Shown here piece after piece: positions 10,350 to 49,105 of a stretch of 64,000 nt of DNA. Each line of letters starts with the position of its first letter. Within the stretch, counting starts at the first letter, position 1. The notes under the pieces were generated by a model. It saw only the letters and a list, made by a program, of their open reading frames with translations, was not told the origin of the DNA and did not search any database. Position numbers and translations under genes: made by a program. The stretch comes from a virus: positions 16,086-80,085 of IMG/VR virus record IMGVR_UViG_3300043015_000560. One strand, given 5' to 3'.

Positions 10350-10612
10350 TACCATTCCTCTATCATAGGTTTTAGTTTTTTGGTGTGTAAATCTTCTAAC
10401 ATTTTAACAATGGGTTGCCCGTCGGTTAGTAGAAATAAATCCATATCTTCTTTTGTCTGTGTTACAAATGTCATTCTGATTCTCACAGGATCTGTTTGAT
10501 CCGGGAAAAATTCTATATCATCAGTAAACTGTGCCGTCTTTAAGACATCTTCTATGACATTAAAATCAAGAGCAAGGTTGTCTCTGATAAAGCTTAATCG
10601 CCAAGTGTACAC
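10349..10612 (-). CDS. Hypothetical protein
   Basis: 87-aa ORF translationally coupled to neighbours; GAGAGGA SD before GTG. Confidence 0.6.
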   Translation of the reverse strand: MYTWRLSFIRDNLALDFNVIEDVLKTAQFTDDIEFFPDQTDPVRIRMTFVTQTKEDMDLFLLTDGQPIVKMLEDLHTKKLKPMIEEW

Positions 10613-11907
10613 AAATATCCTCTCAATTGATCCATATTAACTTTGGTTTCTGTAGTAAAATCTTTCTTGTTTAATGTCGTAATAGTTTTAAATATATTTG
10701 TATTTATCCTATCTGTATTGTAGCTAACAGTAGGCTCCCATAGAACTAAGTGTAAGTCTTCTCCTACAATGTCAAACTCTCCAGCATAATGTTTACTTAC
10801 AAAATTATCTAAAACGTGTTTTTTATCTCTACCCATATGTATCCAGGTGTTTCCTTTTTTATTTAATTGATCGCCTAACAATCTTTTATTAGGCCATAGT
10901 TCGCAGTTAACAACTACTCTGTCATCTACAAGTTCCATGGTATAAAAGTCATCTGGTTGACAACCTAAACTGCTCTTTGTCCAATCACTATCTTTTGTAA
11001 CATGATTGACTAGAAGTGGAATACCGGTGTCGATAGAACCGAAGTGAGACATAAATTCAATATTATTTTCCTCACACAATCCTACAAAATAATCTGGCAC
11101 TGTAAATCCACTCATGTTAATTAATAAGGTTGTATCTAATTTGGGTATTGCTTTTAAGAATATATCCATACACCGCATATTGATCATCATCATTTTAGTT
11201 GGTTGCCATTTAACTATTTCATCTGCAAACCAACCTGAAATATGTTCAACTGTCATTGGATTCATTACAATGTTTCTGTGATTGTCAGATGCCATTAGGC
11301 TAGGAAACAAATGAGTTAATATGCTACTAGCGTGGTGCATATTTTTACTGTGAACAACTTTATCATCTTTTACAAACTTGAACACATCTATATTTCTTTT
11401 GGATATTGTATAAACCTCATTCTGCGTAAACAGCACTGGCTTAGAATCACTTGTTGTGCCTGAGGTCGAGCCTAATAGATAAGGAGTATGTAATTCGTTA
11501 AATTTATCTTCACATTCTTCATAATAATTTAAAATATCGTCTTCGTGTAAAACATTCTCACTATAACGCTCTACCATAATGTGGTGAATAGGATGAGATT
11601 TTAACCAATCACATTCTACTGTAAACTTAACGGGTCCAAACAAACCTAACTTTGTTTTGTGTATTGTTTGTGGGTTTACAGGGAAATCTAATATGAAAAG
11701 GATCAATCCTAATTCAGCGGCTGCAAAAGACAACGCAACTTGATTAACGTTAACTTCCATAATTGATATAGCAAGTTTATCGCCTTTCTCAGCGTTATAC
11801 TTATGTTTTAAGAGGTGTTTCCAGCGATTTGTTAGACTAATAATATCAGATTTAGTGTATCCATCATAATCAAGCGAATCATTAATAATATTTGTTGTGA
11901 GCATCAA
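10594..11907 (-). CDS. Adenylate-forming (ANL / AMP-binding) enzyme-like protein
   Basis: STSGTTSDSKPV P-loop, HFGSIDTG (YGxTE-like), LGD...MGR, and C-terminal TKVNMDQLR (A10 Lys-like). Confidence 0.7.
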   Translation of the reverse strand: MMLTTNIINDSLDYDGYTKSDIISLTNRWKHLLKHKYNAEKGDKLAISIMEVNVNQVALSFAAAELGLILFILDFPVNPQTIHKTKLGLFGPVKFTVECDWLKSHPIHHIMVERYSENVLHEDDILNYYEECEDKFNELHTPYLLGSTSGTTSDSKPVLFTQNEVYTISKRNIDVFKFVKDDKVVHSKNMHHASSILTHLFPSLMASDNHRNIVMNPMTVEHISGWFADEIVKWQPTKMMMINMRCMDIFLKAIPKLDTTLLINMSGFTVPDYFVGLCEENNIEFMSHFGSIDTGIPLLVNHVTKDSDWTKSSLGCQPDDFYTMELVDDRVVVNCELWPNKRLLGDQLNKKGNTWIHMGRDKKHVLDNFVSKHYAGEFDIVGEDLHLVLWEPTVSYNTDRINTNIFKTITTLNKKDFTTETKVNMDQLRGYLCTLGD

Positions 11908-24392: not shown

Positions 24393-30596
<6,204 letters not shown>

Positions 30597-31357: not shown

Positions 31358-32749
31358 ATGAGACCTTTACGAATCAAAGCATCAGGCACTCCTATAACAG
31401 GTGCAAATTACCAGGGCTTACAAGAGATGAGCGATGGTGAAATTAATCAATATCTCTCAAATGTTATTACACAAAAGTTTGCCGATGACTCTGATGGTAC
31501 AGGCACAGCTGAGTTAAACATTAACGGATCGGGTACTGGCATTGGTACATTCGTTGATACACAAAGAAACGATGCAATTGGCGCTCACCCTTCAGGTGGA
31601 GCTACCACAACTACTAATTACGCATTTAACCAAGTAACAACAGCAGCAACCGAAAGTATTACTGATAGAGTAGTTGGTTGGGATAACGCAATCAAACAAA
31701 TGACTGACGGCGACTTAGATACTGACGTTTTAGATAAAGCGATTGATAGTATGGTTACCGAATCAGATTACACCGTTGGACAGTATTCACTTAGACCTAC
31801 TGCTCCTACAGGCGGCACGTGGACATCTAGATATACAATTACAGACACCGCACAAGGCGGCAACTCCACAACTTACTTGTGGCAAAAGACTGCACCTACA
31901 TCTAGCCCCAACTCAGATTTAGCAGCACTTAAAACTGACGGATCTTCTGTTAGAATGATGAGCGATGCAGAAATGGAACAGATGGTTCCTAGTTTTAGAA
32001 ATAGAATCATAGATACAAATATCGGAACATACAAGGTACAACAATCTGCTCCTTCATCTGGTGGTACTTGGGTACAGATGGGAGATTCCTTTAGTAACAC
32101 TCAACAGGAAATAGAATCTGAAAACTATGTAGGGAACTACACAGGATCTTACACCGGGGCTTATAACCAGGCGTTCTCAGGAACATATGCAGGTAACTAC
32201 ACGGGCGCCAAAACATACACCGGTAACTATTCTGGAACATATGCAGGTAACTACGTGGGTGGTTATGTGGGCGCCAAAACATACAGTGGAAGCTACTCAG
32301 GTAACTACGCAGGATCGTATCAAGGTAACTATGCAGGAACTTCAGCATATGCTGGAAACTATTCTGGATCGTATCAAGGTAACTATGTTCTATATTACGC
32401 AGGTTATGCACACGCTACATATACAGGATACTATTCTGGAACGTATACGGGTTACTACACAGGACCTAAGACATACACCGGGTACTACACTGGAACGTAT
32501 ACTGGTTACTACACAGGTAACTATGTAGGAACTTCAGCATATTCCGGAACCTATACAGGTTACTATGATGGAACCTATACAGGTAACTATGTAGGAACTT
32601 CAGCATATACAGGTTACTACACCGGCTCATATACTGGGTATTTCTCAGGATCGTATTCAGGCACATATGCCGGAACATACGCAGGCGACACTATTCAAGC
32701 GAGTAAAGAAACACTTTCAACCATTGCACTTTGGTTGAGAACTGCTTAA
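31358..32749 (+). CDS. Putative fibre-tip/receptor-binding protein with Tyr-x-Gly-x repeat insertion
   Basis: Three related modules (LQEMSD/IKQMTD/VRMMSD starts); 187-aa YxGx array inserted in the third. Confidence 0.75.
   Translation: MRPLRIKASGTPITGANYQGLQEMSDGEINQYLSNVITQKFADDSDGTGTAELNINGSGTGIGTFVDTQRNDAIGAHPSGGATTTTNYAFNQVTTAATESITDRVVGWDNAIKQMTDGDLDTDVLDKAIDSMVTESDYTVGQYSLRPTAPTGGTWTSRYTITDTAQGGNSTTYLWQKTAPTSSPNSDLAALKTDGSSVRMMSDAEMEQMVPSFRNRIIDTNIGTYKVQQSAPSSGGTWVQMGDSFSNTQQEIESENYVGNYTGSYTGAYNQAFSGTYAGNYTGAKTYTGNYSGTYAGNYVGGYVGAKTYSGSYSGNYAGSYQGNYAGTSAYAGNYSGSYQGNYVLYYAGYAHATYTGYYSGTYTGYYTGPKTYTGYYTGTYTGYYTGNYVGTSAYSGTYTGYYDGTYTGNYVGTSAYTGYYTGSYTGYFSGSYSGTYAGTYAGDTIQASKETLSTIALWLRTA
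32126..32686 (+). repeat. YxGx tetrapeptide repeat array with 22-residue super-period
   Basis: About 42 Y/F-x-G units broken by AKT, AKT, TSA, YAHAT, PKT, TSA, TSA. Confidence 0.95.
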
Positions 32750-32756
32750 ATAGGAC

Positions 32757-32788
32757 TTGACAAGGCATTATATATAAGTTATAATGCC
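32757..32788 (+). promoter_or_regulatory. Sigma70-type promoter overlapped by a 9-bp inverted repeat
   Basis: TTGACA-N17-TATAAT; GGCATTATA-N7-TATAATGCC. Confidence 0.8.
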
Positions 32789-32816
32789 GTTATACATTTT
32801 AATTATGGAGTAAATT

Positions 32817-33311
32817 ATGGCGAGAAGTAAAAAGAAGTTTGATGTCAAAGATGTCAAAGTTGAACTAATCGATCCTAAAAAAGCAAAAAAAGAACCTACC
32901 AAATTTGAATTTCCGTATTGGTCCAATAAGGAAGCAAAGCATCTTATTGCTACTATTGTTATGCCAGATGGCAGACGTAGCCTCGCTTCTATTATGGATA
33001 AGGATGGAACGAATCCCGACTATCTAGCAATACTAGAACAATTCACCGAAGAACAAATTGACGAAAATACCGCAGAGGGTCTAAAGCGCAGAAACGAAAA
33101 TGTGCGTAGACAAATGGAAAGGCGAGAAGCCGAAGCAGCAAGAGCACAACAAGAATCACTGTTTGCATCAAAGTTGGAAGCATTTGAAATACCTCTTATT
33201 AAAAACTCTACCAACGTCGAGTTTAAAAAACTAATTCGAAAGTCCAAATCTCCTATGGAGGTAGCAGCATACGCTACGATATTGTTACAAAAAGAATTAG
33301 AATCCGAATAG
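32817..33311 (+). CDS. Hypothetical protein (charged, coiled-coil)
   Basis: 164-aa ORF with GGAG SD; first gene of the modification island. Confidence 0.75.
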   Translation: MARSKKKFDVKDVKVELIDPKKAKKEPTKFEFPYWSNKEAKHLIATIVMPDGRRSLASIMDKDGTNPDYLAILEQFTEEQIDENTAEGLKRRNENVRRQMERREAEAARAQQESLFASKLEAFEIPLIKNSTNVEFKKLIRKSKSPMEVAAYATILLQKELESE

Positions 33312-33320
33312 GAATATATT

Positions 33321-34049
33321 ATGTCTAAGCGAGAAGGCGACGGTTTTGTAATTGTCGCAACTAAAATGCCAGGCTACTTTAGAGCCGCAATCAAACTAGC
33401 AGAGTCTATTATAGACTTTTGGCCCGAAGCTAAAATTACTTTCTACACAGAAGAAAAATGGGTAGACACCGCACACCCAGAGTGCGAACTAAAACCTGGA
33501 CAATATCAATTATTTGATAATGTAATTACATGGGAAGTCCCTAGTCATATTAGAGCTAAACTCTGGGCACTAGAACATACTCCATACGAAAGAACTTGTT
33601 ATTTAGATTGTGATATGGAATGTTGGCATGAAGATATCCAAGATGTTTTTGATCTACTCGGCGATAAAGATTTAGTCTTTACAAAGATAAGACCTTACAA
33701 TGCCAAACTAACAAAACTTTCAAACACAGAAGAAATGACTATGCACTGTGGTTGGTTTGTTTACAACGACAAACCTGATACACTGGCTCTAATGAGTGCG
33801 TGGTATGGTGAATACTTACACCAACAAACAAAAGAATATGATATCGCACATTATCCTATAGACGCAATTAAATGGGATACTTTTACAATGTGGCGACTAT
33901 TAACTTACAGCGATCATAAAGTAAATTGGGGATTTATTAATGAGCCTGACGCAAGGTGGAACTTTGTAAACGGATACAAGGATGAAGAACTTCAAGGGAC
34001 TGACATCGTTTTATACCACTACACAATTCCTAATTGGCAGCTTAAGTAA
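33321..34049 (+). CDS. Glycosyltransferase, GT-A fold (GT8-like)
   Basis: RAKLWAL..TPYERTCYLDCD (DxD), WDTFTMWRLL, ARWNF, VLYHYT. Confidence 0.8.
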   Translation: MSKREGDGFVIVATKMPGYFRAAIKLAESIIDFWPEAKITFYTEEKWVDTAHPECELKPGQYQLFDNVITWEVPSHIRAKLWALEHTPYERTCYLDCDMECWHEDIQDVFDLLGDKDLVFTKIRPYNAKLTKLSNTEEMTMHCGWFVYNDKPDTLALMSAWYGEYLHQQTKEYDIAHYPIDAIKWDTFTMWRLLTYSDHKVNWGFINEPDARWNFVNGYKDEELQGTDIVLYHYTIPNWQLK

Positions 34050-34672
34050 TGAGTGAAGTCGAGCAGTGGAAACTTTACAATGAGTGGACATACGACAACT
34101 TCTTTTCAGAAATTAAAGAGACAGATTCAGTTTTAGAATTGGGACCTTTAATCGGATTCCACACAGAACTTATCCAAAGAAGAAAACCAAAAATTCTTAA
34201 GGTTGTAGAACCTAACACAGGTGACGCACTAGAGGCTTTAAAGGTTAAGACATCATTAAGTGATAATCAAATATACAATGGCACTGCAAATGATTATTAC
34301 AAAGAACATAATGAGACATTTGATACGGTAGTTTGTTGCGGACTACTTTATCACTTGCTAGCACCAGAACACTTGTTAGAGCAGATAGTAAACCGATCTA
34401 AACCTAAAAGAATTATTATATCTAATTTAGAAGCAAAAGATTCTATTGTCAAGTATAATACTAGGGAAGATGGTAGAGAGGCGTTTGCTAGATCTGATGA
34501 TAAAGGAATAACTAAACCTATTAGATATGGAGTTTCTTTATCTGCAGATACAACACGAGGTATGTTAGAAAGTGTTGGTTATAAATGTTTGAGAAACTTA
34601 AATACAGTAGGTATCTGGGATAAGTATATATATTATTGGCAACTATATGAGGTAGACAATGAAATGGGTTAA
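34049..34672 (+). CDS. Class I SAM-dependent methyltransferase
   Basis: SVLELGPLIGFHT motif I; FDTVVCCGLLYHLLAP motif. Confidence 0.85.
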   Translation: MSEVEQWKLYNEWTYDNFFSEIKETDSVLELGPLIGFHTELIQRRKPKILKVVEPNTGDALEALKVKTSLSDNQIYNGTANDYYKEHNETFDTVVCCGLLYHLLAPEHLLEQIVNRSKPKRIIISNLEAKDSIVKYNTREDGREAFARSDDKGITKPIRYGVSLSADTTRGMLESVGYKCLRNLNTVGIWDKYIYYWQLYEVDNEMG

Positions 34673-35309
34673 CATAAGCGACGAGCTATTAGATATTCTT
34701 CAACCGTACACCGACTGGTTTTTTAGTCAAGACTTAACTGAACTTGAAAAACATATTGACGGGAAAAGAGCAGGCGACGAAACTATAGATACTGCCTGTG
34801 AAAAAGAATACTTAGATATGATTGTTGCAAAGGATGGCGCCCATGTTGGATACCCAGAACATACAAAATCTATAGATATATTAATGGACGAAAGAACTCC
34901 TCGTGAACACAGAGAAAAGTGTCAAGAGTTAAATAGAGAATTGTGTGCTTACTTAGGTGCTAGAAATCAAGCAGTTCAAGTTTACTATCCTAAAGACGGA
35001 TTTATGGCCTGGCACAATAACTGGAATGCATCTGGCTATAATATTCTTTTATCTTATAGTCCAACGGGTAATGGATTCTTTAAGTATTTAGATCCTAAAA
35101 CTAAAGAACTTGTTACAATGAAAGATAAAGCAGGTTGGGCTTGTAAAGTAGGATACTACGGAAGGGGTAGAGAACCTGACAAAGTTTATTACCATTGTGC
35201 AGGTTCATATGAAGATCGCCTTACTTTAGGGTTTGTTATTCCACATTTAGAATTGTGGCGTAACATGATTGAAGATATCTCAGGAGAAGATGCTACTTCT
35301 TACCAATAG
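34659..35309 (+). CDS. 2OG-Fe(II) oxygenase-like / cupin protein
   Basis: YYPKDGFMAWHNN...YYHCA...RLTLGF: Hx(D/N)...H...R double-stranded beta-helix pattern. Confidence 0.65.
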   Translation: MKWVNISDELLDILQPYTDWFFSQDLTELEKHIDGKRAGDETIDTACEKEYLDMIVAKDGAHVGYPEHTKSIDILMDERTPREHREKCQELNRELCAYLGARNQAVQVYYPKDGFMAWHNNWNASGYNILLSYSPTGNGFFKYLDPKTKELVTMKDKAGWACKVGYYGRGREPDKVYYHCAGSYEDRLTLGFVIPHLELWRNMIEDISGEDATSYQ

Positions 35310-35970
35310 CCATAAATCTATCGTAAAACTTTTTACCGTCCCACGAATAATAATATTGAATTGTCTTGCCACTATAATAAGTGTCCTTTAATCCTATATT
35401 TTCTATTAGCGCAAGTTCGCTATCAACACAATTAATGCCGTACATTTCTTCCATTACGTTAGAAGACTGACAAGCAAATATTGCATGCTTGTTAGCAGTA
35501 TAAAGATCTTGTAACGGATACATCTGTTCGCACCCTAAAGATATAACAACATCTACATTCATCTGATTAAGTTCGTCAAACGCAAAAGGAACATCTAAGT
35601 TCCAGTGATTAATCTTAATGAACTCTTCTTTAATATAATGCCCATTAAAAACTTTAGATAACTCTAAAGCCTCAGGATCAATATCGACCAAGTGTAGTTG
35701 CCCTACAGATAAGTTTTCACAAAGCAGAGGCACTAAAGGAATACCTAACCAAGAATTTAGAACAAGAATATTCAATCCTTCTTCTTTCATATAGTGTTCT
35801 TCTAGAACTTTCTTTAGTTCTTCCACCATCCAAATACCTGCTTCCATAGTATTCGGATTGAGAGCCTGTCTAAAGTCCTCATGTTTATGCTTCATTTCAT
35901 GTTCGACTTTAGCTAGTCCATCGCCCCAGTGTTGGAGACTGTTTAAAAAATTATAGTTCAAATTTGACAT
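35293..35970 (-). CDS. Methyltransferase-like protein (divergent motif I)
   Basis: ILVLNSWLG...VDID...VISLGCEQM...CQSSN...INCV...RFMAIG; start refined to ATG 35970. Confidence 0.6.
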   Translation of the reverse strand: MSNLNYNFLNSLQHWGDGLAKVEHEMKHKHEDFRQALNPNTMEAGIWMVEELKKVLEEHYMKEEGLNILVLNSWLGIPLVPLLCENLSVGQLHLVDIDPEALELSKVFNGHYIKEEFIKINHWNLDVPFAFDELNQMNVDVVISLGCEQMYPLQDLYTANKHAIFACQSSNVMEEMYGINCVDSELALIENIGLKDTYYSGKTIQYYYSWDGKKFYDRFMAIGKK

Positions 35971-36640
35971 CTTCTTTCCTTCCCATTGAATCAAATAAAC
36001 AAACGTAAGGCATTTGTCTATAGACTTGTTTTTCTGTATCATGGGGCCAAATATAACCTTGGTTATAACTGTACGCCCACCCAATTGGAAAATATTTAAT
36101 CCTAGCAACACCGCGGTGTCCGAAGAAATTATCTATTCCCCTGTAATACCAAAGTATCTGTTTTAGATGCTTGTTAAGATATAAAGTAATATCTTCGGTA
36201 TTTAAATTATCATTCCATCTTAAAACTGACGAGTTCAAGTCAGTATACTTATGTGGAATGTGTCTTGTATCTTTATATTGAGTTTCCATATCATGCCAGT
36301 GTGTCTTAATGAAACACAAACAATCCTCAGGATCAAACTCAACCCATTCGTCTAAGTTTCTTTGAATGATAACATCTAAGTCGAAAAACATTTTCTCGCC
36401 CTTTTGACGAACTACATTATCATCAAACAAGTACATTTTATTCCACCACTTTTCTAAGTTATTATTTTTAGGTAGTGGAATAACATTTATATCTTCAGAC
36501 AATCCTCTAGGGTCTTCTGTTAAACAAAAGAACTTAAACTCTGAGCTAATGTTCTTAACACAGGATTCGTAAATTGCTTGAACGTGCTTGTGGGAATACT
36601 TGTTTCCCCACTTCACGGTATAAATGTTTATCATTGCCAA
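35951..36640 (-). CDS. Glycosyltransferase (KWGxKY / DLD family)
   Basis: VKWGNKYS..HV...FFCLTED...WWNKMYLF...FFDLDVII...NSSVLRW. Confidence 0.8.
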   Translation of the reverse strand: MAMINIYTVKWGNKYSHKHVQAIYESCVKNISSEFKFFCLTEDPRGLSEDINVIPLPKNNNLEKWWNKMYLFDDNVVRQKGEKMFFDLDVIIQRNLDEWVEFDPEDCLCFIKTHWHDMETQYKDTRHIPHKYTDLNSSVLRWNDNLNTEDITLYLNKHLKQILWYYRGIDNFFGHRGVARIKYFPIGWAYSYNQGYIWPHDTEKQVYRQMPYVCLFDSMGRKEDVKFEL

Positions 36641-37443
36641 TGCTTTAATAGTTTAGGATCTACCAACTCATCTTGTTTGGTGTGTCCTCTACTCTTATCC
36701 TCAAATGGTAGTAAGTCTACATTAAACACGCAAACAATACAACCTTCTCTATAAACTCCGACATCCATATCACCACTGTCCCAATCTCTACCTCTGTTAT
36801 ACGAATAGGCGTATTCAGATGGGAAGTAGTCCCACAGGTTTTCACCATAGATGCCCCATTTCCAACTGTGATAGTTATCTGTTCCGTCGGTATAAGTGAA
36901 CCATATCTTTTCTTGATTCTCTAATACATCGTTCCAAATAATCTCACATTGATCATCGCTCCAAACTTGACAGGACCCGTTTGTGTATGCGCCGTGTGAA
37001 AGTTTGAATCTTCGTGTTTTCATTGGGCGGGGATCTTGCCACCATGAACGCATCTTTGTAGGACGCTCCATGTTGTAAGTAATGATAGGTTCTAAATCAC
37101 GTTGAATGATGACATCCAAGTCAAAGAAAATAAAGCGGCCAGTAGGTTTATCGTCTGCAAAATTATGAGTATTGAATACAAACGTCTTGGGTCTATCCCA
37201 ACATCTTGCCATGCCGTACTTGAAGTTGTCGCCACCAAACCAATACTTAGGATGGATATTGGGAATATCAGGAAAATCAATAACTTTAATATCATCTAAA
37301 AGTCCTTCTGCATCGTCGGTATAACAATAAAAATGAAAGTCGTGTTTTTTGTCGACATGCCGTTTCGTCATGTTATACAAACGATTAACAAAATGAGGCC
37401 CATACTTTGAGCCCCATTTAGAGCAGACTATATTTACCCTCAT
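36631..37443 (-). CDS. Glycosyltransferase (KWGxKY / DLD family)
   Basis: CSKWGSKYGPHFVNRL...YCYTDD...HPKYWFG...CWDR...FFDLDVII...YSYNRG. Confidence 0.8.
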   Translation of the reverse strand: MRVNIVCSKWGSKYGPHFVNRLYNMTKRHVDKKHDFHFYCYTDDAEGLLDDIKVIDFPDIPNIHPKYWFGGDNFKYGMARCWDRPKTFVFNTHNFADDKPTGRFIFFDLDVIIQRDLEPIITYNMERPTKMRSWWQDPRPMKTRRFKLSHGAYTNGSCQVWSDDQCEIIWNDVLENQEKIWFTYTDGTDNYHSWKWGIYGENLWDYFPSEYAYSYNRGRDWDSGDMDVGVYREGCIVCVFNVDLLPFEDKSRGHTKQDELVDPKLLKHWQ

Positions 37444-37691
37444 AGTTCTTCCACGACGTGTTGAATGACAAAATCTCTACCATACATCAAGCTATAGTTA
37501 ACTAGCTCAGAAACAATATCCTTTGTCTTTTCCTCAAATTGATTTTTATTACAATGAACGACAATAGAAACAAACTTGCCGTTTCTAACAGAGTCGATTA
37601 CATCGTCCGTATCTTTTTTATCCCAAGTATCAAAGGATCCAAAATACGCATCCGCTTTCCTTGTTGATTTATACATTTTTGCACGCTCCAC
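37440..37691 (-). CDS. Hypothetical protein
   Basis: Coupled ORF within the minus-strand operon (likely start MYKS at 37676). Confidence 0.55.
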   Translation of the reverse strand: MERAKMYKSTRKADAYFGSFDTWDKKDTDDVIDSVRNGKFVSIVVHCNKNQFEEKTKDIVSELVNYSLMYGRDFVIQHVVEEL

Positions 37692-39174
37692 ATTTTAGTT
37701 TACAAATGTTGCTAGGGTCTAGTTTTAATTTATTATTGAAGTATGCTGTGTAAAAAGCATTCGTCAAAATAGACTCTAGCGGTTCTAACTTACAATTGTT
37801 GGCCTTCCAATTATATATGATGTCTGTATCTTCATAAGGATTAATGTCTGCTTCTAGTATTTCTCTAGCAGTGTAAACACACGGGAAAACATTTCCTCGC
37901 TTGTCTATGTAACATTTATTCTCAATTTTAGATTTACATCTAACCTTCTTCTCAAATTTAACTTTTACATCTACATAGTCTGCCTCTTTAGGTTTTGTTT
38001 GTAGAGTATCAAGTTCTATTAACTTATAGTCTGGAAGTTCTTTAACAATTATTCTTTCTTCTTTAACTGGTAGTTCAGGTGGCTTGTTTTCAATAAAAGT
38101 AAAGCCACTGAATTTATGTTTTTTGGATAACGCTCTTGCCTCTTCAATGTCATTATCAGATTGTGTGGTTCTAGTGTATTGCCAAAAAACACGAGCTCCA
38201 CTCTTTAACAAGGCCTTTGCATTTGTAATTTGTTTATCAAAGTCTTTGTTATTAATGTCATCAATTGTAGCAGTGATGTTACCCATTTTTCTATATAGTA
38301 TCCCGGTGCTACCCCACCAAAATTCATCATGTGATGTTAAGTCTGTTAATACATCTACACTCACACCTTCAAACTCTAGAAAGTATTCAGAGATGTCGTA
38401 AAAGTCCTCACATAAACTTGGCTCTTCTACGTCATTGGATAAAATTAACTTGGTCATTCTAGACTTTCCTAGAAAGTCCTTATTAAAGATCCTAACAACC
38501 TCATCATAGCTAAATCCATTTACTTCCATTTCTATTTCAGAAGGCAAGTAAGGATACAAATCTATAGACCTATTATAACAGTTTTCTACGTAGCTGTCAA
38601 GAGTATGAGTGTACCAATAAGGAAAGGTAACGATATCATCTGTAAGACTAATTGGATAGTCTTTGTTTTGTGTATTTAAAAACGGAAGTGATGGTAGTTC
38701 GTTAACTTGAAACTCTTGTTTGAATTCGTAGTTATAAAATGTTATGTCTTGTTCGTCTCTATCCCATTTTTGTATCAGATTCTGTACATATTTGTTCTTA
38801 TGTATATAATATGTAACATTTTCGTCTTGCATTAAAACTTTATCAATACCACTGCCTTTGTACGATAAAAGGGCCATAGGATCATTTAATAAGACGTTTG
38901 GAGTAGTAAAAAGACTAACTCCATTATCCTTGGTATGTTGTATTAAGTCTATTTCTAACCACTGCTTTCCATACTTTGGAACATGGAATTGAATGCCGTC
39001 TACAAAGCCGTCTCGCTTTTTAGTGCTATTGATATTGTCGAGTTCTTCCTGTGTAGTGAAAACAAAGAAGTCAAAAGGCTGCTCAATCAGGTTCTTTGCC
39101 TGAGTATAGAAATTGTTTATATGGATTTGACTGTACTTACTATCCAGTAAGTTTGCTATTAAAGTTAGCTCCAT
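37669..39174 (-). CDS. Degenerate GT + degenerate radical SAM + SPASM/twitch fusion (pseudo-enzyme)
   Basis: N-terminus echoes the GT paralogues; centre echoes a radical SAM barrel without CxxxCxxC; C-terminal C...YIDKRGNVFPC...C..KC. Confidence 0.6.
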   Translation of the reverse strand: MELTLIANLLDSKYSQIHINNFYTQAKNLIEQPFDFFVFTTQEELDNINSTKKRDGFVDGIQFHVPKYGKQWLEIDLIQHTKDNGVSLFTTPNVLLNDPMALLSYKGSGIDKVLMQDENVTYYIHKNKYVQNLIQKWDRDEQDITFYNYEFKQEFQVNELPSLPFLNTQNKDYPISLTDDIVTFPYWYTHTLDSYVENCYNRSIDLYPYLPSEIEMEVNGFSYDEVVRIFNKDFLGKSRMTKLILSNDVEEPSLCEDFYDISEYFLEFEGVSVDVLTDLTSHDEFWWGSTGILYRKMGNITATIDDINNKDFDKQITNAKALLKSGARVFWQYTRTTQSDNDIEEARALSKKHKFSGFTFIENKPPELPVKEERIIVKELPDYKLIELDTLQTKPKEADYVDVKVKFEKKVRCKSKIENKCYIDKRGNVFPCVYTAREILEADINPYEDTDIIYNWKANNCKLEPLESILTNAFYTAYFNNKLKLDPSNICKLKCGACKNV

Positions 39175-39922
39175 GCCAATGCCTCAAAAGTTTCTCATCT
39201 TGTAATTCACTCATTTTAATCTGCGCCTTAGCTGCAGGGTCTGGAGTTAAGTCTGTATTAAACAAACAAACTTTATACTCCTCTCTATATTTATACTTCT
39301 CTTTATCCTCTTTATGATGAGCTCCTCTATTATAAGAGTAAACCCAATCCCAAGGAATGTTGCCCCAGAACTTTTTTTGTCTCCAGTAATGGTAGTTATC
39401 TGATCCTTTAAAGAATGTTTTAAATACTACATCTTGGTGTTCTAGAACATCGTAGTAAATTTTCTCACATTGACTCCCATTCCAACACATCATACTAGAA
39501 TTAAAATAAGTTCCTCTAATATCAATAAAGAATCTCTCATGTTGTTGTCCGGGTGGTTGCCATTTAGATTCGATTATTCTAGGTTTGTTTGCTAGATTGT
39601 ATAGATCGTTTATATTGTTTTGAACAATAACATCTAAATCAAAGTAACACCATTTACCCTCATAGCCTAGCCACTTATGAGAGTTGAATACAAGGAACTT
39701 AGCACGATCCCAACAAAAGTTTTCCTTTCCAAACCAATAGTCTGGATGCAGTGGCTCAATATTGGGGATAGGCGCGGTGGCGCAATCGAGTCCTTCTGCG
39801 TCATCTGTAAAACAGGTAAAGGTGCAGGGTCGAGTATAGTGTCTCTCAACCATTGCCTTTAAATTGTTTACATATTCAGGAGAATATTTACTTCCCCATT
39901 TGATACATACGAAGTTCATCAT
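39140..39922 (-). CDS. Glycosyltransferase (KWGxKY / DLD family)
   Basis: CIKWGSKYSPEYVNNL..MVERH...CFTDD...HPDYWFG...CWDR...YFDLDVIV...NSSMMCW. Confidence 0.82.
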   Translation of the reverse strand: MMNFVCIKWGSKYSPEYVNNLKAMVERHYTRPCTFTCFTDDAEGLDCATAPIPNIEPLHPDYWFGKENFCWDRAKFLVFNSHKWLGYEGKWCYFDLDVIVQNNINDLYNLANKPRIIESKWQPPGQQHERFFIDIRGTYFNSSMMCWNGSQCEKIYYDVLEHQDVVFKTFFKGSDNYHYWRQKKFWGNIPWDWVYSYNRGAHHKEDKEKYKYREEYKVCLFNTDLTPDPAAKAQIKMSELQDEKLLRHWHGANFNSKLTG

Positions 39923-40538
39923 ATCTTTTTGCTATGTCCTCTTGAACTGATTCTTGTCCATTCAATAATGCTATTGTTGCGTCTTTTATTTTACCACCAT
40001 CAAACCAAAATGAATAAACCTCATTTTCGGGAAAGTGTTCAAATGTAAAACTCTCATGGTATAAAAACCTATCATCACCTGCATACTTTACCATATAGTA
40101 ATCTTTATTCTTTTCCCAGTAATCATATATATGTCTGTTATCTTCCCACATCATCACACTAGAATTAAAATTGCTTAAATAATTATATGACCACCTACTG
40201 TCTTTGTGATAAGGGAATTCTTGAGGTTTCCAGTAAGTGTAACATATGATGGGGTTCTTGTCAAGCATTTTCCACAAATGTTCTATACCTTTTTGTATTC
40301 TAATATCTAAGTCTAAATAAAGAACTTTGCCTAAGTTTTCAAGTTTGAACAGTTTAACCTTTTCCCAATGCCCTTCAATTTCATGATCTATAGGTATTGT
40401 TGTTATATTTTTATTGAGTCCAATAGGATTATCAGTTACACAGACGCGGTTGTAGTCACCTGGAATAGAATTATAAATACGATTAACGTCCTCAGACGTA
40501 TATTTGTCCCCGTATTTTAATGTCAAAATTGTTTTCAT
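39888..40538 (-). CDS. Glycosyltransferase (KxGxKY / DLD family)
   Basis: LKYGDKYT..DVNRI...CVTD...WEKVKLF...YLDLDI...FNSSVMMW...GDDRFL. Confidence 0.8.
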   Translation of the reverse strand: MKTILTLKYGDKYTSEDVNRIYNSIPGDYNRVCVTDNPIGLNKNITTIPIDHEIEGHWEKVKLFKLENLGKVLYLDLDIRIQKGIEHLWKMLDKNPIICYTYWKPQEFPYHKDSRWSYNYLSNFNSSVMMWEDNRHIYDYWEKNKDYYMVKYAGDDRFLYHESFTFEHFPENEVYSFWFDGGKIKDATIALLNGQESVQEDIAKRYDELRMYQMGK

Positions 40539-40555: not shown

Positions 40556-40563
40556 TATAAATA
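40556..40563 (+). promoter_or_regulatory. T4 late promoter
   Basis: TATAAATA. Confidence 0.85.
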
Positions 40564-40589
40564 AACGAGTATAAAAGGATAACCCGTAA

Positions 40590-40916
40590 ATGGCAACTGT
40601 TTCAAATTTAGTAATAGATCAAGGTACAACTTTTTCTCTTACTATGCAATTAGATAACGAAGACGGTTCAGATAAGGACCTGACTAGTTATACTGTGAAT
40701 TCGCAAATACGAAAATCGTATTACAGTAATACTTATACAAGTTTTACAACCGCGAAAACAAATTTGACGGGCGAATTAACCATATCTTTAACAGCAGAAC
40801 AGACTTCAAGTCTTAAAGCAGGAAGATATGTATATGATATTGAGATTTCCTCAAGTGCAGAAACATTAAGAGTGCTTGAAGGAATCGTAACAGTAACTCC
40901 AGAGGTAACCCGATAA
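40590..40916 (+). CDS. Small Ig-like virion protein (BppU N-terminal-like)
   Basis: NLVIDQGTTF...DLTSY....QIRKSY...GRYVYDIEI...RVLEG.VTVTPEVTR. Confidence 0.75.
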   Translation: MATVSNLVIDQGTTFSLTMQLDNEDGSDKDLTSYTVNSQIRKSYYSNTYTSFTTAKTNLTGELTISLTAEQTSSLKAGRYVYDIEISSSAETLRVLEGIVTVTPEVTR

Positions 40917-41149
40917 TGGCTATCAAGATAACTATACCAAGTAGTGGATCTTCAAACCGAGTAATTACTAACACCACCAAAAACTCTAAACAGGTGACCA
41001 GTGCTAAAGTAGAACAGCTCGCGAATATCGACATATCGAATGGTTTACAGGATGGTTATACACTGGTATATGATGAGCCTACGGGCAAGTGGGTAGCACA
41101 AAATATCGAAGCAGGACAATTGGAAAGCTTAGATGGTGGTACTTATTAA
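40916..41149 (+). CDS. Small fibre adaptor ending LDGGTY
   Basis: L.NID...DGYTLVYD...GKW fibre repeat; C-terminal LDGGTY. Confidence 0.7.
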   Translation: MAIKITIPSSGSSNRVITNTTKNSKQVTSAKVEQLANIDISNGLQDGYTLVYDEPTGKWVAQNIEAGQLESLDGGTY

Positions 41150-41201
41150 GAGTTTTAATTTATATTATAAAATTACAAACAAACATTCTAGGAGATAATA
41201 A

Positions 41202-42734
41202 ATGGCAACAGTAATTCAAATTAAAAGAAGTACCGCAGCTACAGCCCCTACAACATCGGATCTAAACGAAGGCGAACTGGCGTATAGCCAGGATAAAGCC
41301 AACTCAGGTGATTCCGCGATTCTTTATATTGAATCGGTTGATTCCTCAAATCAACAGGTTGTACATAAAATCGGTGGTAAATTTTACACCGATATCGTAG
41401 ACGGTGCCTCTTCTTCTAACACAGCTTCACAGCTTGTTAAGAGAGACGCAAGTGGAGATTTCTCTGCAGGAACAATTACAGCTGATCTTACAGGTAACGT
41501 AACAGGAGATTTAACCGGAGATGTCACAGGTGACGTAACAGGCGACCTTACTGGTAACGTAACGGGTAATGTCACAGGTGACGTAACAGGCGATGTAACC
41601 GGCGATATCACTGGTGCAGTAACAGGTAACGTAACAGGTGATGTAACTGGTGACCTTACAGGTAATGTAACAGGTAACGTAACAGGTGATGTAACTGGTG
41701 ACCTTACAGGTAACGCAGATACAGCAACAACAGCAGCGGCACTAACAACAGCTAGAGCAATTGCTCTTACAGGTGACGTAACAGGTACAGTAAATTTTGA
41801 CGGTTCAGGCGATGTAAGTATTGCAACTACAATGGCAGCAGACGCTATTGCACTTGGTACAGACACTACAGGTAACTATGTTGCCACAGTAGCAGACGCA
41901 GGAAGCGGCAACCTTACAGTAACTGGCTCAGGTTCTGAAACAGCAGGTGTAACACTTGATCTTTCTAACTCAGGCGTATCCGCAGGTTCATACGGTTCTA
42001 CAACAGCAGTTCCTGTTTTAACAGTAGACGCTAAAGGTAGGGTCACTGCTGCAACTACAGCAGCAATTGCAACATCATTTGATATTGCAGCGGACAGTGG
42101 AACAAATGATACAGTAGCTGGTGGCGAAACACTTACTTTTGCTGGTACAGCTAACGAAGTAACAACAACCGTATCAGACAATCAAATTCAAGTTGGACTA
42201 GCAACAAACCCAACAATTGGCGGTAACCTAACTGTATCTGGTAACTTAACAGTTTCTGGAACTACAACACAGGTTAACTCTCAGACATTGACAGTTAATG
42301 ATCCATTATTTAAAGTAGCAACTGGCAACTCTAGTGACGCTTTAGACATTGGTTTTTATGGTATCTTTAACGACGGCGCTGACAAATACTCTGGTTTATT
42401 CAGAGATGCTAATGACGGTAAATACAAAATGTTTACTGGCTCTAGCGTTGAGCCTACAACAACTGTTGACACTACAGCAAGTGGCTATTCCGTAGCAACA
42501 TTGGTTGCCAACATTGAAGGCAACGTAACAGGCGGAACTATTTCTGGACTATCAGCAGCGATTGGTGTTGCAGACGGTGGTACTGGCGCAAGCACTTTTA
42601 CTTCAAACGGTATCGTTTATGGTAACGGAACTAGCGCTCTACAAGTAACAGCAGCAGGCACAGAAGGGCAACTGTTAATGGCAGATGCTAGCGGCACGCC
42701 TGTTTGGGCAACACTAGACGGCGGTACGTTCTAG
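41202..42734 (+). CDS. Tail/head fibre protein with G(D/N)(V/L)T repeats
   Basis: IQIKRS...P...L.EGELAY N-domain; about 19 GDVT units; GGTGAST motif; C-terminal LDGGTF. Confidence 0.85.
   Translation: MATVIQIKRSTAATAPTTSDLNEGELAYSQDKANSGDSAILYIESVDSSNQQVVHKIGGKFYTDIVDGASSSNTASQLVKRDASGDFSAGTITADLTGNVTGDLTGDVTGDVTGDLTGNVTGNVTGDVTGDVTGDITGAVTGNVTGDVTGDLTGNVTGNVTGDVTGDLTGNADTATTAAALTTARAIALTGDVTGTVNFDGSGDVSIATTMAADAIALGTDTTGNYVATVADAGSGNLTVTGSGSETAGVTLDLSNSGVSAGSYGSTTAVPVLTVDAKGRVTAATTAAIATSFDIAADSGTNDTVAGGETLTFAGTANEVTTTVSDNQIQVGLATNPTIGGNLTVSGNLTVSGTTTQVNSQTLTVNDPLFKVATGNSSDALDIGFYGIFNDGADKYSGLFRDANDGKYKMFTGSSVEPTTTVDTTASGYSVATLVANIEGNVTGGTISGLSAAIGVADGGTGASTFTSNGIVYGNGTSALQVTAAGTEGQLLMADASGTPVWATLDGGTF
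41481..41715 (+). repeat. 12-bp degenerate tandem repeat encoding G(D/N)(V/L)T
   Basis: ACAGGT(G/A)ACGTA-like units. Confidence 0.9.
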
Positions 42735-42757
42735 AATAATTAATTAAAGGAAATATT

Positions 42758-43000
42758 ATGAGTGAACAAAATCCAAATAATGTAGTTGACGAATATATTG
42801 CATTACTAAGTGCAAAACTTAACGAAACAACGCAAGAAAATCTCGTTCTAAAAGCTAGAATGAATATCTTACAAAAAGAACGAGATGCTCTTACGGCTCA
42901 GTTAGAAGAGTTAAACATACAGGAGAAAGAGGAAGATGGTAGACACAGTAATCAAACTGAAGAGGTCGGAAACAGCTTCGGCGGTGCCCACGCAGGCTAA
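42758..43000 (+). CDS. Small coiled-coil protein (possible fibre chaperone)
   Basis: Heptad pattern LSAKLNETTQENLVLKARMNIL after a fibre gene. Confidence 0.65.
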   Translation: MSEQNPNNVVDEYIALLSAKLNETTQENLVLKARMNILQKERDALTAQLEELNIQEKEEDGRHSNQTEEVGNSFGGAHAG

Positions 43001-43247
43001 CTTAGAAGTTGGTGAGGTTGCTCTAAATTTAGCAGACAAGATACTTTATACAAAGAATACCGACGGTGCGGTTGTAGCAGTATCTAACTATGTTGTAGGA
43101 GATGCCAACTTGGTGTTCCCAACAGGTGATTACGGCGACATGACTGCATCAAGTGTAGATGCTTTTGGTGTTGCAACTGAAAGATCTTATGATTGCCGAA
43201 CTGCTCCTCCTGGAATACTTATAACTGAAGATTTCGGAACACTTTAA
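42936..43247 (+). CDS. Stand-alone fibre N-terminal domain protein
   Basis: VIKLKRSET...PT...LEVGEVALN.AD..LY paralogous to the N-terminus of ORF 41202. Confidence 0.75.
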   Translation: MVDTVIKLKRSETASAVPTQANLEVGEVALNLADKILYTKNTDGAVVAVSNYVVGDANLVFPTGDYGDMTASSVDAFGVATERSYDCRTAPPGILITEDFGTL

Positions 43248-43270
43248 TTCAAAATCTAGGAGTATAACCA

Positions 43271-43525
43271 ATGACAACTCAAGTACAATTTAGAAGAGGT
43301 ACTACAGCAGAAAACAATAATTTCACTGGCTTAGCCGGAGAGGTTACAGTTAATACTGGTAACTATGCTATGAGAGTTCACGATGGTGCTACTCAAGGCG
43401 GTCACGAATTGATGCTAGCTTCGGCTTCTAATATTTCAGGTAACATACCCTTTACAAATATTAGTGGTACGGTAGAAGCAGATACCCTCGCTGACGGCTC
43501 TACATTAGACGGCGGAACATATTAA
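43271..43525 (+). CDS. Stand-alone Mtd-N-like fibre domain protein ending LDGGTY
   Basis: QVQFRRGTTAEN..FTG.AGEVTV.T....RVHDG.TQGG. Confidence 0.8.
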   Translation: MTTQVQFRRGTTAENNNFTGLAGEVTVNTGNYAMRVHDGATQGGHELMLASASNISGNIPFTNISGTVEADTLADGSTLDGGTY

Positions 43526-46494: not shown

Positions 46495-47244
46495 ATGGCA
46501 ACGAATTTTTACTTTCAGAATGGTGATACAAGCGGAACCACTAATGAACAAAGATTAGTAGAAGACCTTGTAATTGAATCATTAAAAATCTATGGGCACG
46601 ATATTTACTATATGCCCAGAACACTTGTAAACAGAGACACTATCTTTGATGAGGATACCTTATCTCAGTTTACTCAATCATATCCATTAGAAATGTATTT
46701 GGAAAATGTAAACGGCTTTGACGGCGAAGGCGATCTGTTTACAAAGTTTGGTATTGAAATAAGAGACCAAGCTACATTTATAGTTTCTCAGAGACGCTGG
46801 GAAGAAACCACTTTAACTAGTGGAGGAACATTTACTCTTAATGAGCGTCCTGCAGAAGGAGATCTTTTATATTTTCCAAAGACAGGTTCTATATTTGAAA
46901 TTAAACTTGTAGAATTTACTAACCCATTCTATCAAGTCGGTAAACTTTTTGTATATAGATTACAATGCGAATTGTTCCAGTACAGCTCAGAGGTATTGGA
47001 TACAGGCACAGATGCCGATGAAATAGAAGACACTAATAGCTTGGATATGTTACAATATCAAATGTTGTTAGAAGACGGTGGACTTCTTAAGCAAGAAGTG
47101 GGTGGAGGATTAGTTCTAGAAGAATATCAAGCACAAAAAACAAATGTTAATACTGACAATACAGACTTTATTACTCAGAATGAAATTGAGTCTATCCTAG
47201 ACTTCTCAGAAATTAATCCATTCGGTGAGCTAGGAGGAAGTTAA
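46495..47244 (+). CDS. gp14: Neck protein gp14
   Basis: EQRLVEDLVIESLKIYGHDIYYMPR...RPAEGDLLYFP...PFYQ...ILDFSEINPFG. Confidence 0.95.
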   Translation: MATNFYFQNGDTSGTTNEQRLVEDLVIESLKIYGHDIYYMPRTLVNRDTIFDEDTLSQFTQSYPLEMYLENVNGFDGEGDLFTKFGIEIRDQATFIVSQRRWEETTLTSGGTFTLNERPAEGDLLYFPKTGSIFEIKLVEFTNPFYQVGKLFVYRLQCELFQYSSEVLDTGTDADEIEDTNSLDMLQYQMLLEDGGLLKQEVGGGLVLEEYQAQKTNVNTDNTDFITQNEIESILDFSEINPFGELGGS

Positions 47245-48502: not shown

Positions 48503-49105
48503 ATGAATTGGCAAGATGTTGAAGGCTATGCAGGCTTAGGTTGTTATTTCTTTTTTGAAAAGATACTCAAAAAAATCCCACAAAATAAAATCTCCGTATT
48601 AGAAGTAGGCAGTTATCAGGGCAAGAGTGCTCTTATGATTAACCACATCTGCAACACACTAAAAAAAGAAGTTGATATACATTGTATAGATGCTTGGCCT
48701 GATTTTATTGTTAGAGAAACAGAGTTTGAGGAAGCTTGGCCCCCATTTTATCAAGGGGGAACTGAAATTAAGAAAAACTTTTTACAAAACATAAAAGACT
48801 TTCCTAATATCACATATGAAAAAATACCATTACAATTTCCAATGTCATTTGACAACCACAAGTTTGGTCCCTCATATGATTTAATATACATAGACGCGGA
48901 CCACAGTGAAGAATCTACTTATGCTTGTATAGATGCTTGGTTGCCATATTGTAAGAGCTATCTTGTTATTGATGATTATTTTTCAACAGCCATGGACTCC
49001 GTTAAACGAGGAACAGATAGAGTTGTCGAAGAAAGAGGATTGACGTTATCAATGGACGTGAGGCGGAACAATGGCGCAAAGGTTTGGATAGATTGTACGA
49101 CATAG
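48503..49105 (+). CDS. Class I SAM methyltransferase (Methyltransf_24-like)
   Basis: VLEVGSYQGKSA...HCIDAW...DLIYIDADHS...VIDDY. Confidence 0.85.
   Translation: MNWQDVEGYAGLGCYFFFEKILKKIPQNKISVLEVGSYQGKSALMINHICNTLKKEVDIHCIDAWPDFIVRETEFEEAWPPFYQGGTEIKKNFLQNIKDFPNITYEKIPLQFPMSFDNHKFGPSYDLIYIDADHSEESTYACIDAWLPYCKSYLVIDDYFSTAMDSVKRGTDRVVEERGLTLSMDVRRNNGAKVWIDCTT

Follow-up and report, generated by a model that had tools for sequence, protein, structure and literature searches.

We describe an eleven-gene island in a marine T4-like myovirus that, judged from gene context, we tentatively read as a conserved module, coupled to a fibre gene, that tailors and glycosylates a structural protein of the phage; we give this reading a little less than an even chance. 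The window, by which we mean the whole stretch of DNA analysed, covers 64,000 nucleotides (positions 16,086 to 80,085) of IMG/VR virus record IMGVR_UViG_3300043015_000560, an 80-kb record that is ~48% complete, and the island lies at positions 32757-40538 of the window. The reading is based on a fixed gene order inside a region described as non-syntenic and hypervariable (PMC7029224), on the retaining GT-A fold of one glycosyltransferase (GT), G270, on the presence of four old GT lineages and on the resemblance of D216 to protein prolyl hydroxylases, its nearest structures (Z 9-10). It is based as well on tailoring genes inserted in relatives, on island proteins that have no membrane segments, on late-promoter motifs in relatives and on the absence of ThyA-family and C5-methylase genes from three complete relatives.

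The map of open reading frames (ORFs) agrees with an initial annotation, which had been made from the sequence of the window alone, in giving eleven genes in two convergent operons whose 3′ ends overlap by 17 bp (35293-35309). The island genes and the two genes next to them are:

YxG463: 31358-32749, plus strand; fibre-type protein whose N-domain (residues 2-292) is the conserved partner of the module
A164: 32817-33311, plus strand; Lys-rich with a helical C-terminal part, first of the A-B-D trio
B242: 33321-34049, plus strand; putative GT-A-like protein with invariant D96-x-D98
C207: 34049-34672, plus strand; class I S-adenosylmethionine (SAM) methyltransferase, strain-specific insertion
D216: 34659-35309, plus strand; 2-oxoglutarate (2OG)-Fe(II)-oxygenase fold of the prolyl-hydroxylase type
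E: 35293-35970 (or to 36111 with a GTG start), minus strand; possibly a Rossmann methyltransferase-fold-like protein
F229: 35951-36640, minus strand; DLD-family retaining GT-A glycosyltransferase
G270: 36631-37443, minus strand; DLD-family GT, best conserved gene of the region
H83: 37440-37691, minus strand; small ORF, weakly conserved
I501: 37669-39174, minus strand; degenerate GT N-domain, middle part and SPASM-like Cys-rich C-terminus
J260: 39140-39922, minus strand; DLD-family GT
K216: 39888-40538, minus strand; DLD-family GT, N-terminal half like P1 PmgQ / P7 HdmD
L108: 40590-40916, plus strand; LtfC-like fibre-assembly-type protein (phrog_1084/3304), downstream boundary of the module

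A gene order fixed between fibre genes

IMG/VR holds 227 relatives of G270. From the LtfC-like to the YxG gene, the order K-J-(I)-G-F-E | D-B-A is the same in each of the 25 loci covering the island, with I undetectable in one of them, although the neighbouring fibre genes have diverged to 37-66% identity. The median identity over the 25 loci is 81% for G270, 67% for F229, 56% for both E and J260, 49% for B242, 45% for D216, 44% for K216, 43% for A164 and 32% for I501. Given this kept order and these medians, the island cannot be called hypervariable; no gene of its neighbourhood is better conserved than G270. H83 was found in 4 of the 25 loci, and family searches with it gave no match. At the convergent junction relatives carry unrelated genes, for example those for DNA ligase and HAD-like proteins. 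Inserts are also seen in the slot between G and F (loci L006, L033, L013, L016 and L044), where genes for a Methyltransf_24 protein, an FkbM methyltransferase, a cytidylyltransferase-like protein and a DUF6071 protein are found; these lineage-specific inserts suggest variable tailoring of the resulting glycan. Among 50,697 phage records, a megablast search with the island and tblastn searches with G270 and I501 gave no match, and neither HTVC008M nor Melnitz gave a tblastn match for G270, I501, B242, D216 or K216 at the E-value limits used.

The plus-strand genes reach further. In the same phage records the YxG N-domain, A164, B242 and D216 each match only phage C48C1 (Kyanoviridae), A164 at the same position, and searches for known families gave no match for A164. 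C48C1 has them in the same order: a 3347-residue protein starting with the N-domain is followed by A, B, D and an LtfC-like gene, and the minus-strand cassette is absent. The C48C1 D homologue, used as a probe, brought in 80 more loci at 29-38% identity to D216 of the window, our second set; the counts given for it refer to loci whose flank permits scoring. B precedes D in 58/58 of these, A is in place in 49/58 and an N-domain fibre ORF in 50/58, and the LtfC-like gene follows D in 72/72. The N-domain fibre ORFs encode 403-2068 residues and end 43-178 nucleotides before A in most of the 43 loci listed. Extra DNA lies between D and LtfC in 11 loci, seven of which carry one or two co-directional DLD GTs, sister to the K lineage (support 80). 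The ancestral module, by the order common to both sets, consists of fibre, A, B, D, a GT slot and the LtfC-like gene; in the clade of the window this slot has been enlarged and turned round.

Linkage of the fibre gene to these enzymes across marine T4-like phages, which the initial annotation had put forward as a check, was thus found in 25/25 loci and again in the 80-locus set. Its choice of the YxG repeat as the partner of the enzymes did not hold, since the conserved part of the fibre protein is the N-domain; the distal part with the YxG array is variable, unlike the enzymes. Glycogenin is a GT8 enzyme, and by analogy Tyr O-glycosylation of the YxG array had been considered as a candidate reaction; it was dropped because the conserved partner of the enzymes lies elsewhere in the fibre protein.

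The virus has gp5-, gp8-, gp18-, gp20- and gp23-type genes as well as gp59 and gp32, and in its major capsid protein it shares 69-70% identity with Methylophilales phage Melnitz and Pelagibacter phage HTVC008M. Few large phages in the sea are as common as the pelagimyophage-like ones. The island is bounded by the gene for a DUF4815/VrlC-type giant protein (24393-30596) and gp14, a T4 neck gene (46495-47244); the upstream flank holds the giant protein and the YxG protein, and the downstream flank the LtfC-like gene, a fibre with an Mtd_N domain and gp14. As first described, fibre or structural genes stand on both sides and DNA-modification genes are not adjacent. This position is exactly that of the pelagimyophage ‘host recognition cluster’ as defined in PMC7029224, where fibre genes are reported to be mixed with GT8 glycosyltransferases and radical-SAM cassettes. 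The cluster was reported there as non-syntenic and hypervariable, whereas the sub-module described here is syntenic across distant clades. Next to the island, a contig of run X4 has 39 other letters in place of 2403 nucleotides of downstream fibre-kit genes (41102-43506 of the window), which is a strain-level replacement in the fibre genes that adjoin the stable island.

Glycosyltransferases and associated enzymes

Alignment bore out the presence of four paralogous DLD-motif GTs on the minus strand, as first annotated. F229, G270, J260 and K216 have an invariant G..Y..C.T..D-L-D..Q core, the other three being 24-43% identical to G270, and the D-x-D (D108, D110) is invariant across 22 aligned sequences of the family. 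The AlphaFold model of G270 (predicted local distance difference test, pLDDT, 84) has the fold of retaining GT-A enzymes, with Foldseek matches (probability 1.0, template modelling (TM) score 0.5-0.58) to GT6 alpha-1,3-galactosyltransferase (a3GalT), BoGT6a, GT8 LgtC, UGGT, LARGE1 and GlyE. WbbM is also near in fold, and comparison with viral models (BFVD) gave GTs of uncultured phages at TM 0.74. The fold and the D-x-D after beta-4 are common to G270 and the GT8/GT6 enzymes LgtC, a3GalT, BoGT6a, GlyE and UGGT, but sequence identity to them is only 10-14%. With Pfam Glyco_transf_8, K216 scored 22.4 bits, below the gathering cut-off of 24.3, and the other paralogues gave no match; a PDB profile match of the family to 3tzt had an E value of 0.11. 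The P1 PmgQ / P7 HdmD family (phrog_1962) matched K216 (E 5e-13) and F229 (E 6e-9) in an alignment limited to the N-terminal ~100 residues of each at 28-32% identity; P1 PmgQ is annotated as putative morphogenetic.

In a maximum-likelihood tree F, G, J and K form four separate orthologue clades, with Shimodaira-Hasegawa-like approximate likelihood ratio test (SH-aLRT) values of 100, 99, 96 and 99, respectively. Because all four clades are retained and separate, the duplications are old, and four different linkages fit better than redundancy. A scan of genome contigs gave five loci, namely two phage contigs binned with metagenome-assembled genomes, one short fragment and two stand-alone GT8-like genes, one of which, from Neorhizobium, adjoins an efflux pump and sheds no light on the island. 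No match came from a viral scan in which the distant homologue P0034 was the query.

I501 had been taken for a pseudo-enzyme, and its first ~190 residues do align with the DLD GTs with the D-x-D lost. Its C-terminus matches SPASM with an E value of 0.0028 and 18.3 bits against a cut-off of 21.5, one relative reaching 21.8, and an atlas feature score of 0.83 toward SPASM/radical-SAM clusters is a lead only. Outside the SPASM-like tail, the radical-SAM motif CxxxCxxC was found neither in I501 nor in 41 distinct relatives. In a divergent sub-clade a J orthologue with intact D-L-D is fused to the middle part and SPASM-like tail, giving proteins of 734-912 residues. These fused genes (in L013, L014, L042, L060, L073 and others) carry a conserved TTGACT-N17-TATAAT ~50 codons ahead of the stop codon, immediately upstream of the gene orthologous to G270.

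On the plus strand, B242 had been called GT8-like. Its D96-x-D98 is invariant, while matches of family members to GT2, GT8 and Nucleotid_trans all fall below cut-off (best E 1.2e-4) and the link to the DLD family is weak (hhalign probability 45%); the protein keeps a tentative GT-A-like assignment and probably belongs to a GT-A-like family distinct from the DLD GTs. Nothing usable came from searching PDB sequences with profiles of the D, B and E families.

The model of D216 (pLDDT 90) is a double-stranded beta-helix, and the nearest structures are PiuC, PHD2 and bacterial and viral prolyl 4-hydroxylases (Z 10.4-9). Foldseek gave 118 matches at E<=1e-3; the matches listed are 2OG oxygenases, including AviO1, Ofd2, the PBCV-1 prolyl hydroxylase, AlkB and mimivirus lysyl hydroxylase, and no TET/JBP entries are among them. 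The motif reads H119-x-N121...H179...R187-x-T189, and the family comprises 882 clusters at 50% identity. Instead of the facial triad H-x-D/E...H, the family has an invariant W-H-x-N at the expected H-x-D/E site, with Asn in 137/137 full-length representatives, and it retains the second His and the R-x-T/S anchor for 2OG (R187 in 132/137, T/S189 in 129/137). With Asn in place of the carboxylate ligand and with His and anchor kept, D216 would be an atypical, possibly two-His oxygenase or a pseudo-enzyme. The annotation as a 2OG-Fe(II)-like oxygenase is upheld by fold and anchor and fails at the metal site. We believe that D216 is best filed apart from the canonical 2OG-Fe(II) oxygenases, the case for hydroxylation resting on a fold that has no canonical triad.

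These properties raise the question of whether A, B and D are enzymes at all. They could be mainly fibre assembly or structural factors, such as chaperones or binding modules, leaving the DLD cassette as the only catalytic part with a target unrelated to the fibre. The H-x-N of D216 in every representative would agree with this, as would I501, which shows that the locus tolerates dead enzyme domains, and the position of the trio, which is always between the fibre gene and the LtfC-like assembly gene. We nevertheless consider it improbable, since the D-x-D of B is invariant and both His residues and the R-x-T/S anchor of D are strongly conserved. A 2OG oxygenase that works with two His only, AspH, is known, and in other clades co-directional GTs lie in the same operon as the trio.

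C207 scored 27.1 bits against the Methyltransf_23 cut-off of 27, in agreement with its first annotation as a methyltransferase, of the class I SAM type. It does not belong to a conserved pathway, however. The gene is absent from 80/80 related loci, and in run X4 a contig of a >=95%-identical population passes directly from 34047 to 34658 and skips it; C207 is therefore a strain-level accessory insertion with presence/absence polymorphism. E, annotated as methyltransferase-like, has conserved LNSWLG..D-x-D-x-E motifs, and weak Spermine_synth matches in 8/10 family members together with an atlas lead to methyltransferases leave open a methyltransferase-fold-like assignment, which we make with reserve. 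The long, GTG-started form of E (to 36111) overlaps the 3′ end of F229 by 160 nucleotides (35951-36111). Alignments of relatives obtained by tblastn run into this overlap, probably through nucleotide conservation of F, and the ATG at 35970 is the likelier start.

Promoter signals, RNA and possible targets

Four promoter matches were found in or beside the island:

32757-32785, plus strand: sigma-70-type TTGACA-N17-TATAAT, 12/12 match, before A164; overlaps a 9-bp hairpin
38572-38600, minus strand: sigma-70-type, 12/12 match with TG, inside I501 at about codon 191
40568-40596, minus strand: sigma-70-type, 10/12 match, before K216
40556-40563: late promoter TATAAATA, before L108

Both operons of the window thus carry sigma-70-type rather than late matches. 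The match inside I501 falls where the dead GT domain gives way to the remainder of the protein, and L009, the closest relative, is the only one that shares it; an internal promoter or the remnant of a gene fusion could account for it. Before A in relatives, a sigma-70-type match is present in 6/24 and the late motif TATAAATA in 10/24 distinct upstream regions, and the late motif precedes the K operon in 13/28 distinct relatives, compared with ~1.5% expected by chance at either position. Before the LtfC-like gene it occurs in 28/28 cases in the clade of the window and in 50/53 distinct upstream regions. In the C48C1-like clades the late motif was found before A in 0/42 cases, and sigma-70-like boxes and a hairpin are present instead. 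The fibre-A intergenic regions of L097, L099, L123, L129 and L136 contain sigma-70 or extended -10-like boxes, a hairpin GGGTCA...TGACCC within ~15 nucleotides and a T run, followed by a second AT-rich box; this arrangement may be a terminator plus promoter, or a small RNA. Overall, the promoter signals appear mixed, early and late, and they do not settle the timing of expression.

The phage is present in salt-marsh or estuary samples (runs X1-X18), and contigs of metatranscriptome assemblies span the whole island in four studies. Island contigs had a 3-10x lower word depth than the flanking fibre contigs in three of the four studies, with breaks at ~32.5 kb and ~40.5 kb; this depth is a weak hint because contigs can neither rank expression nor exclude DNA carry-over.

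An alternative target is the host envelope: the enzymes would alter the O-chain of lipopolysaccharide or lipooligosaccharide (LPS/LOS) or the capsule, for example against superinfection or re-adsorption of progeny to lysing cells, and the position among fibre genes would be an insertion hot spot. GT8/GT6-like GT-A enzymes also build LPS/LOS, and the fold of G270 is close to LgtC and WbbM. The sigma-70-type promoters of the window suggest early expression, as of morons; the cassette forms an inverted, self-contained unit, with unrelated morons (DNA ligase, HAD-like) at the junction in relatives, and an NAD-dependent epimerase/dehydratase is encoded elsewhere in the window. Host O-chain modification is also the published interpretation of the GT8-type genes in GT8-rich pelagimyophage clusters (Zaragoza-Solas et al. 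2020, PMC7029224). Yet an A-B-D core and GT slot fixed after one fibre gene across ~30% identity would be unexpected for free morons, D216 resembles protein hydroxylases, and late-promoter motifs are present in about half of the relatives. Nor does the island encode membrane proteins, a flippase or Gtr-type components. A scan with a 19-residue hydrophobic window found no membrane segment in any of the eleven proteins, the highest value (1.8) belonging to the Rossmann beta-1 strand of E, and no GtrA/GtrB/GtrC-like membrane components, as used in Gtr-type O-antigen modification, are among them. On balance we regard envelope remodelling as unlikely, although it is the likeliest of the alternatives.

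It is very improbable that the GTs modify a cytoplasmic protein or small molecule of the host in the course of takeover. The retaining GT-A fold class includes protein-glycosylating toxins; the GTs of the island are soluble proteins of this class, and the promoter matches are of the early type. However, four non-redundant GTs with tailoring inserts point to an oligosaccharide rather than to a single switch-like modification, and the fixed linkage to the fibre gene would be left unexplained.

We see hardly any likelihood of DNA hypermodification, in which the oxygenase, methyltransferase and GTs would decorate phage bases against restriction. The combination of genes recalls systems with TET-type enzymes or with glycosylation of hydroxymethylated bases or 5-hydroxycytosine (PMC13326640), and the sigma-70-type promoters would fit early expression. 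Glycosylation of hydroxymethylcytosine, hydroxymethyluracil and 5-hydroxycytosine requires an enzyme of the ThyA family (PMC13326640), but genes for this family and for C5-methylases are absent from three relatives that are 99-100% complete, in which positive controls were detected and ThyX is present. A Tet_JBP search of the complete relatives gave no match, its positive control being silent as well. The DNA route loses further ground because D216 is most like protein prolyl hydroxylases, PiuC and AlkB-type proteins, and C207 is not of the DNA methylase type and is a strain-level insertion.

Proposed pathway and comparison with known systems

For the substrate, the order of the steps and the catalytic competence of D216 we propose the following, as one way in which a fibre-directed module might operate. 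The core operon behind the N-domain fibre gene would supply A as a helper, B as a GT-A enzyme and D as a prolyl-hydroxylase-like protein with H-x-N, and the slot for DLD GTs and then the LtfC-like fibre-assembly gene complete the core module. In the clade of the window the slot is the inverted cassette, with four non-redundant GTs (K, J, G and F), the dead-GT/SPASM protein I and the putative methyltransferase-fold protein E, and relatives have added O-methyltransferases or a cytidylyltransferase at the same place. During infection these soluble cytoplasmic enzymes would act on a structural protein encoded in the module: D may hydroxylate this protein, B would attach the first sugar, and K, J, G and F would lengthen the chain to a decorated oligosaccharide, so that the assembled fibre would carry a glycan. 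Genes for an NAD-dependent epimerase/dehydratase (650-1525), an AMP-binding ANL enzyme (10594-11907) and a Methyltransf_24 protein (48503-49105) are dispersed across the replication and structural modules of the window; their products could serve the same glycan, either as suppliers or by tailoring it.

Several points weigh against a fibre-directed pathway. The H-x-N of D216 departs from the catalytic triad throughout the family, and the protein may be inactive. Both operons of the window have sigma-70-type rather than late promoter matches, and in the C48C1-like clades no late motif precedes A. Conserved order within a structural module can be explained by vertical descent alone, and the YxG array, the target first proposed, is unsupported since it varies while the enzymes do not. 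The same types of GT build LPS/LOS, and the published reading of such genes is the host O-chain (PMC7029224). The module is known here from its genes, the glycan on a virion protein being a prediction, and our literature search found virion glycosylation undocumented for T4-like phages of Gram-negative hosts. For the fibre-decoration pathway of the initial annotation, the deep linkage and the weakened DNA route speak in its favour, while membership of C207 and a canonical oxygenase site have had to be given up.

With still greater caution we extend the proposal to abundant marine T4-like phages of heterotrophic bacteria, in which it is conceivable, if somewhat doubtful, that a dedicated pathway of tail-fibre glycosylation is vertically conserved, that the fibre gene is coupled to an atypical two-His (H-x-N) hydroxylase and to a priming GT, and that a lineage-specific, expandable cassette of at least four retaining GTs and methyltransferases diversifies the glycan. 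If true, variation of the glycan would be a second layer of host-range or anti-adsorption evolution beside variation of fibre sequence. Decoration of the fibres would also give T4-like phages of Gram-negative hosts their first self-glycosylation system, which would add a sugar layer to host recognition, and the 2OG-oxygenase fold would gain a new branch in which H-x-N is strictly conserved. The defined gene set (fibre, A, B, D and the GT cassette) can be tested without culturing the phage. GT8 genes in this cluster were already known (PMC7029224); in the literature searched we found no description of the syntenic module, of the GT cassette with its four lineages, of the H-x-N family or of the fibre-directed reading.

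Two kinds of known systems can be compared with the module. In actinophages (mycobacteriophages, as cited in PMC11256854 and PMC12363180), phage GTs beside capsid and tail genes, within the structural module, are proposed or shown to glycosylate virion proteins. Those systems belong to siphoviruses of Gram-positive or mycolate hosts, use other GT families and have one or two GTs, compared with five GT-like genes and an oxygenase-fold protein in the candidate module here. Giant viruses decorate their own fibres or capsids, with the lysyl hydroxylase-GT L230 and collagen GTs in mimivirus and with capsid GTs that have methyltransferase domains in chloroviruses (PMC9546862, PMC9614988, PMC4691112). 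Collagen-like Gly-X-Y substrates are not present here. Giant viruses are also viruses of eukaryotes, and D216 has H-x-N in place of H-x-D; the likeness is one of fold. The likeness itself is the pairing of a 2OG-type hydroxylase with GT-A transferases and methyltransferases, all cytoplasmic.

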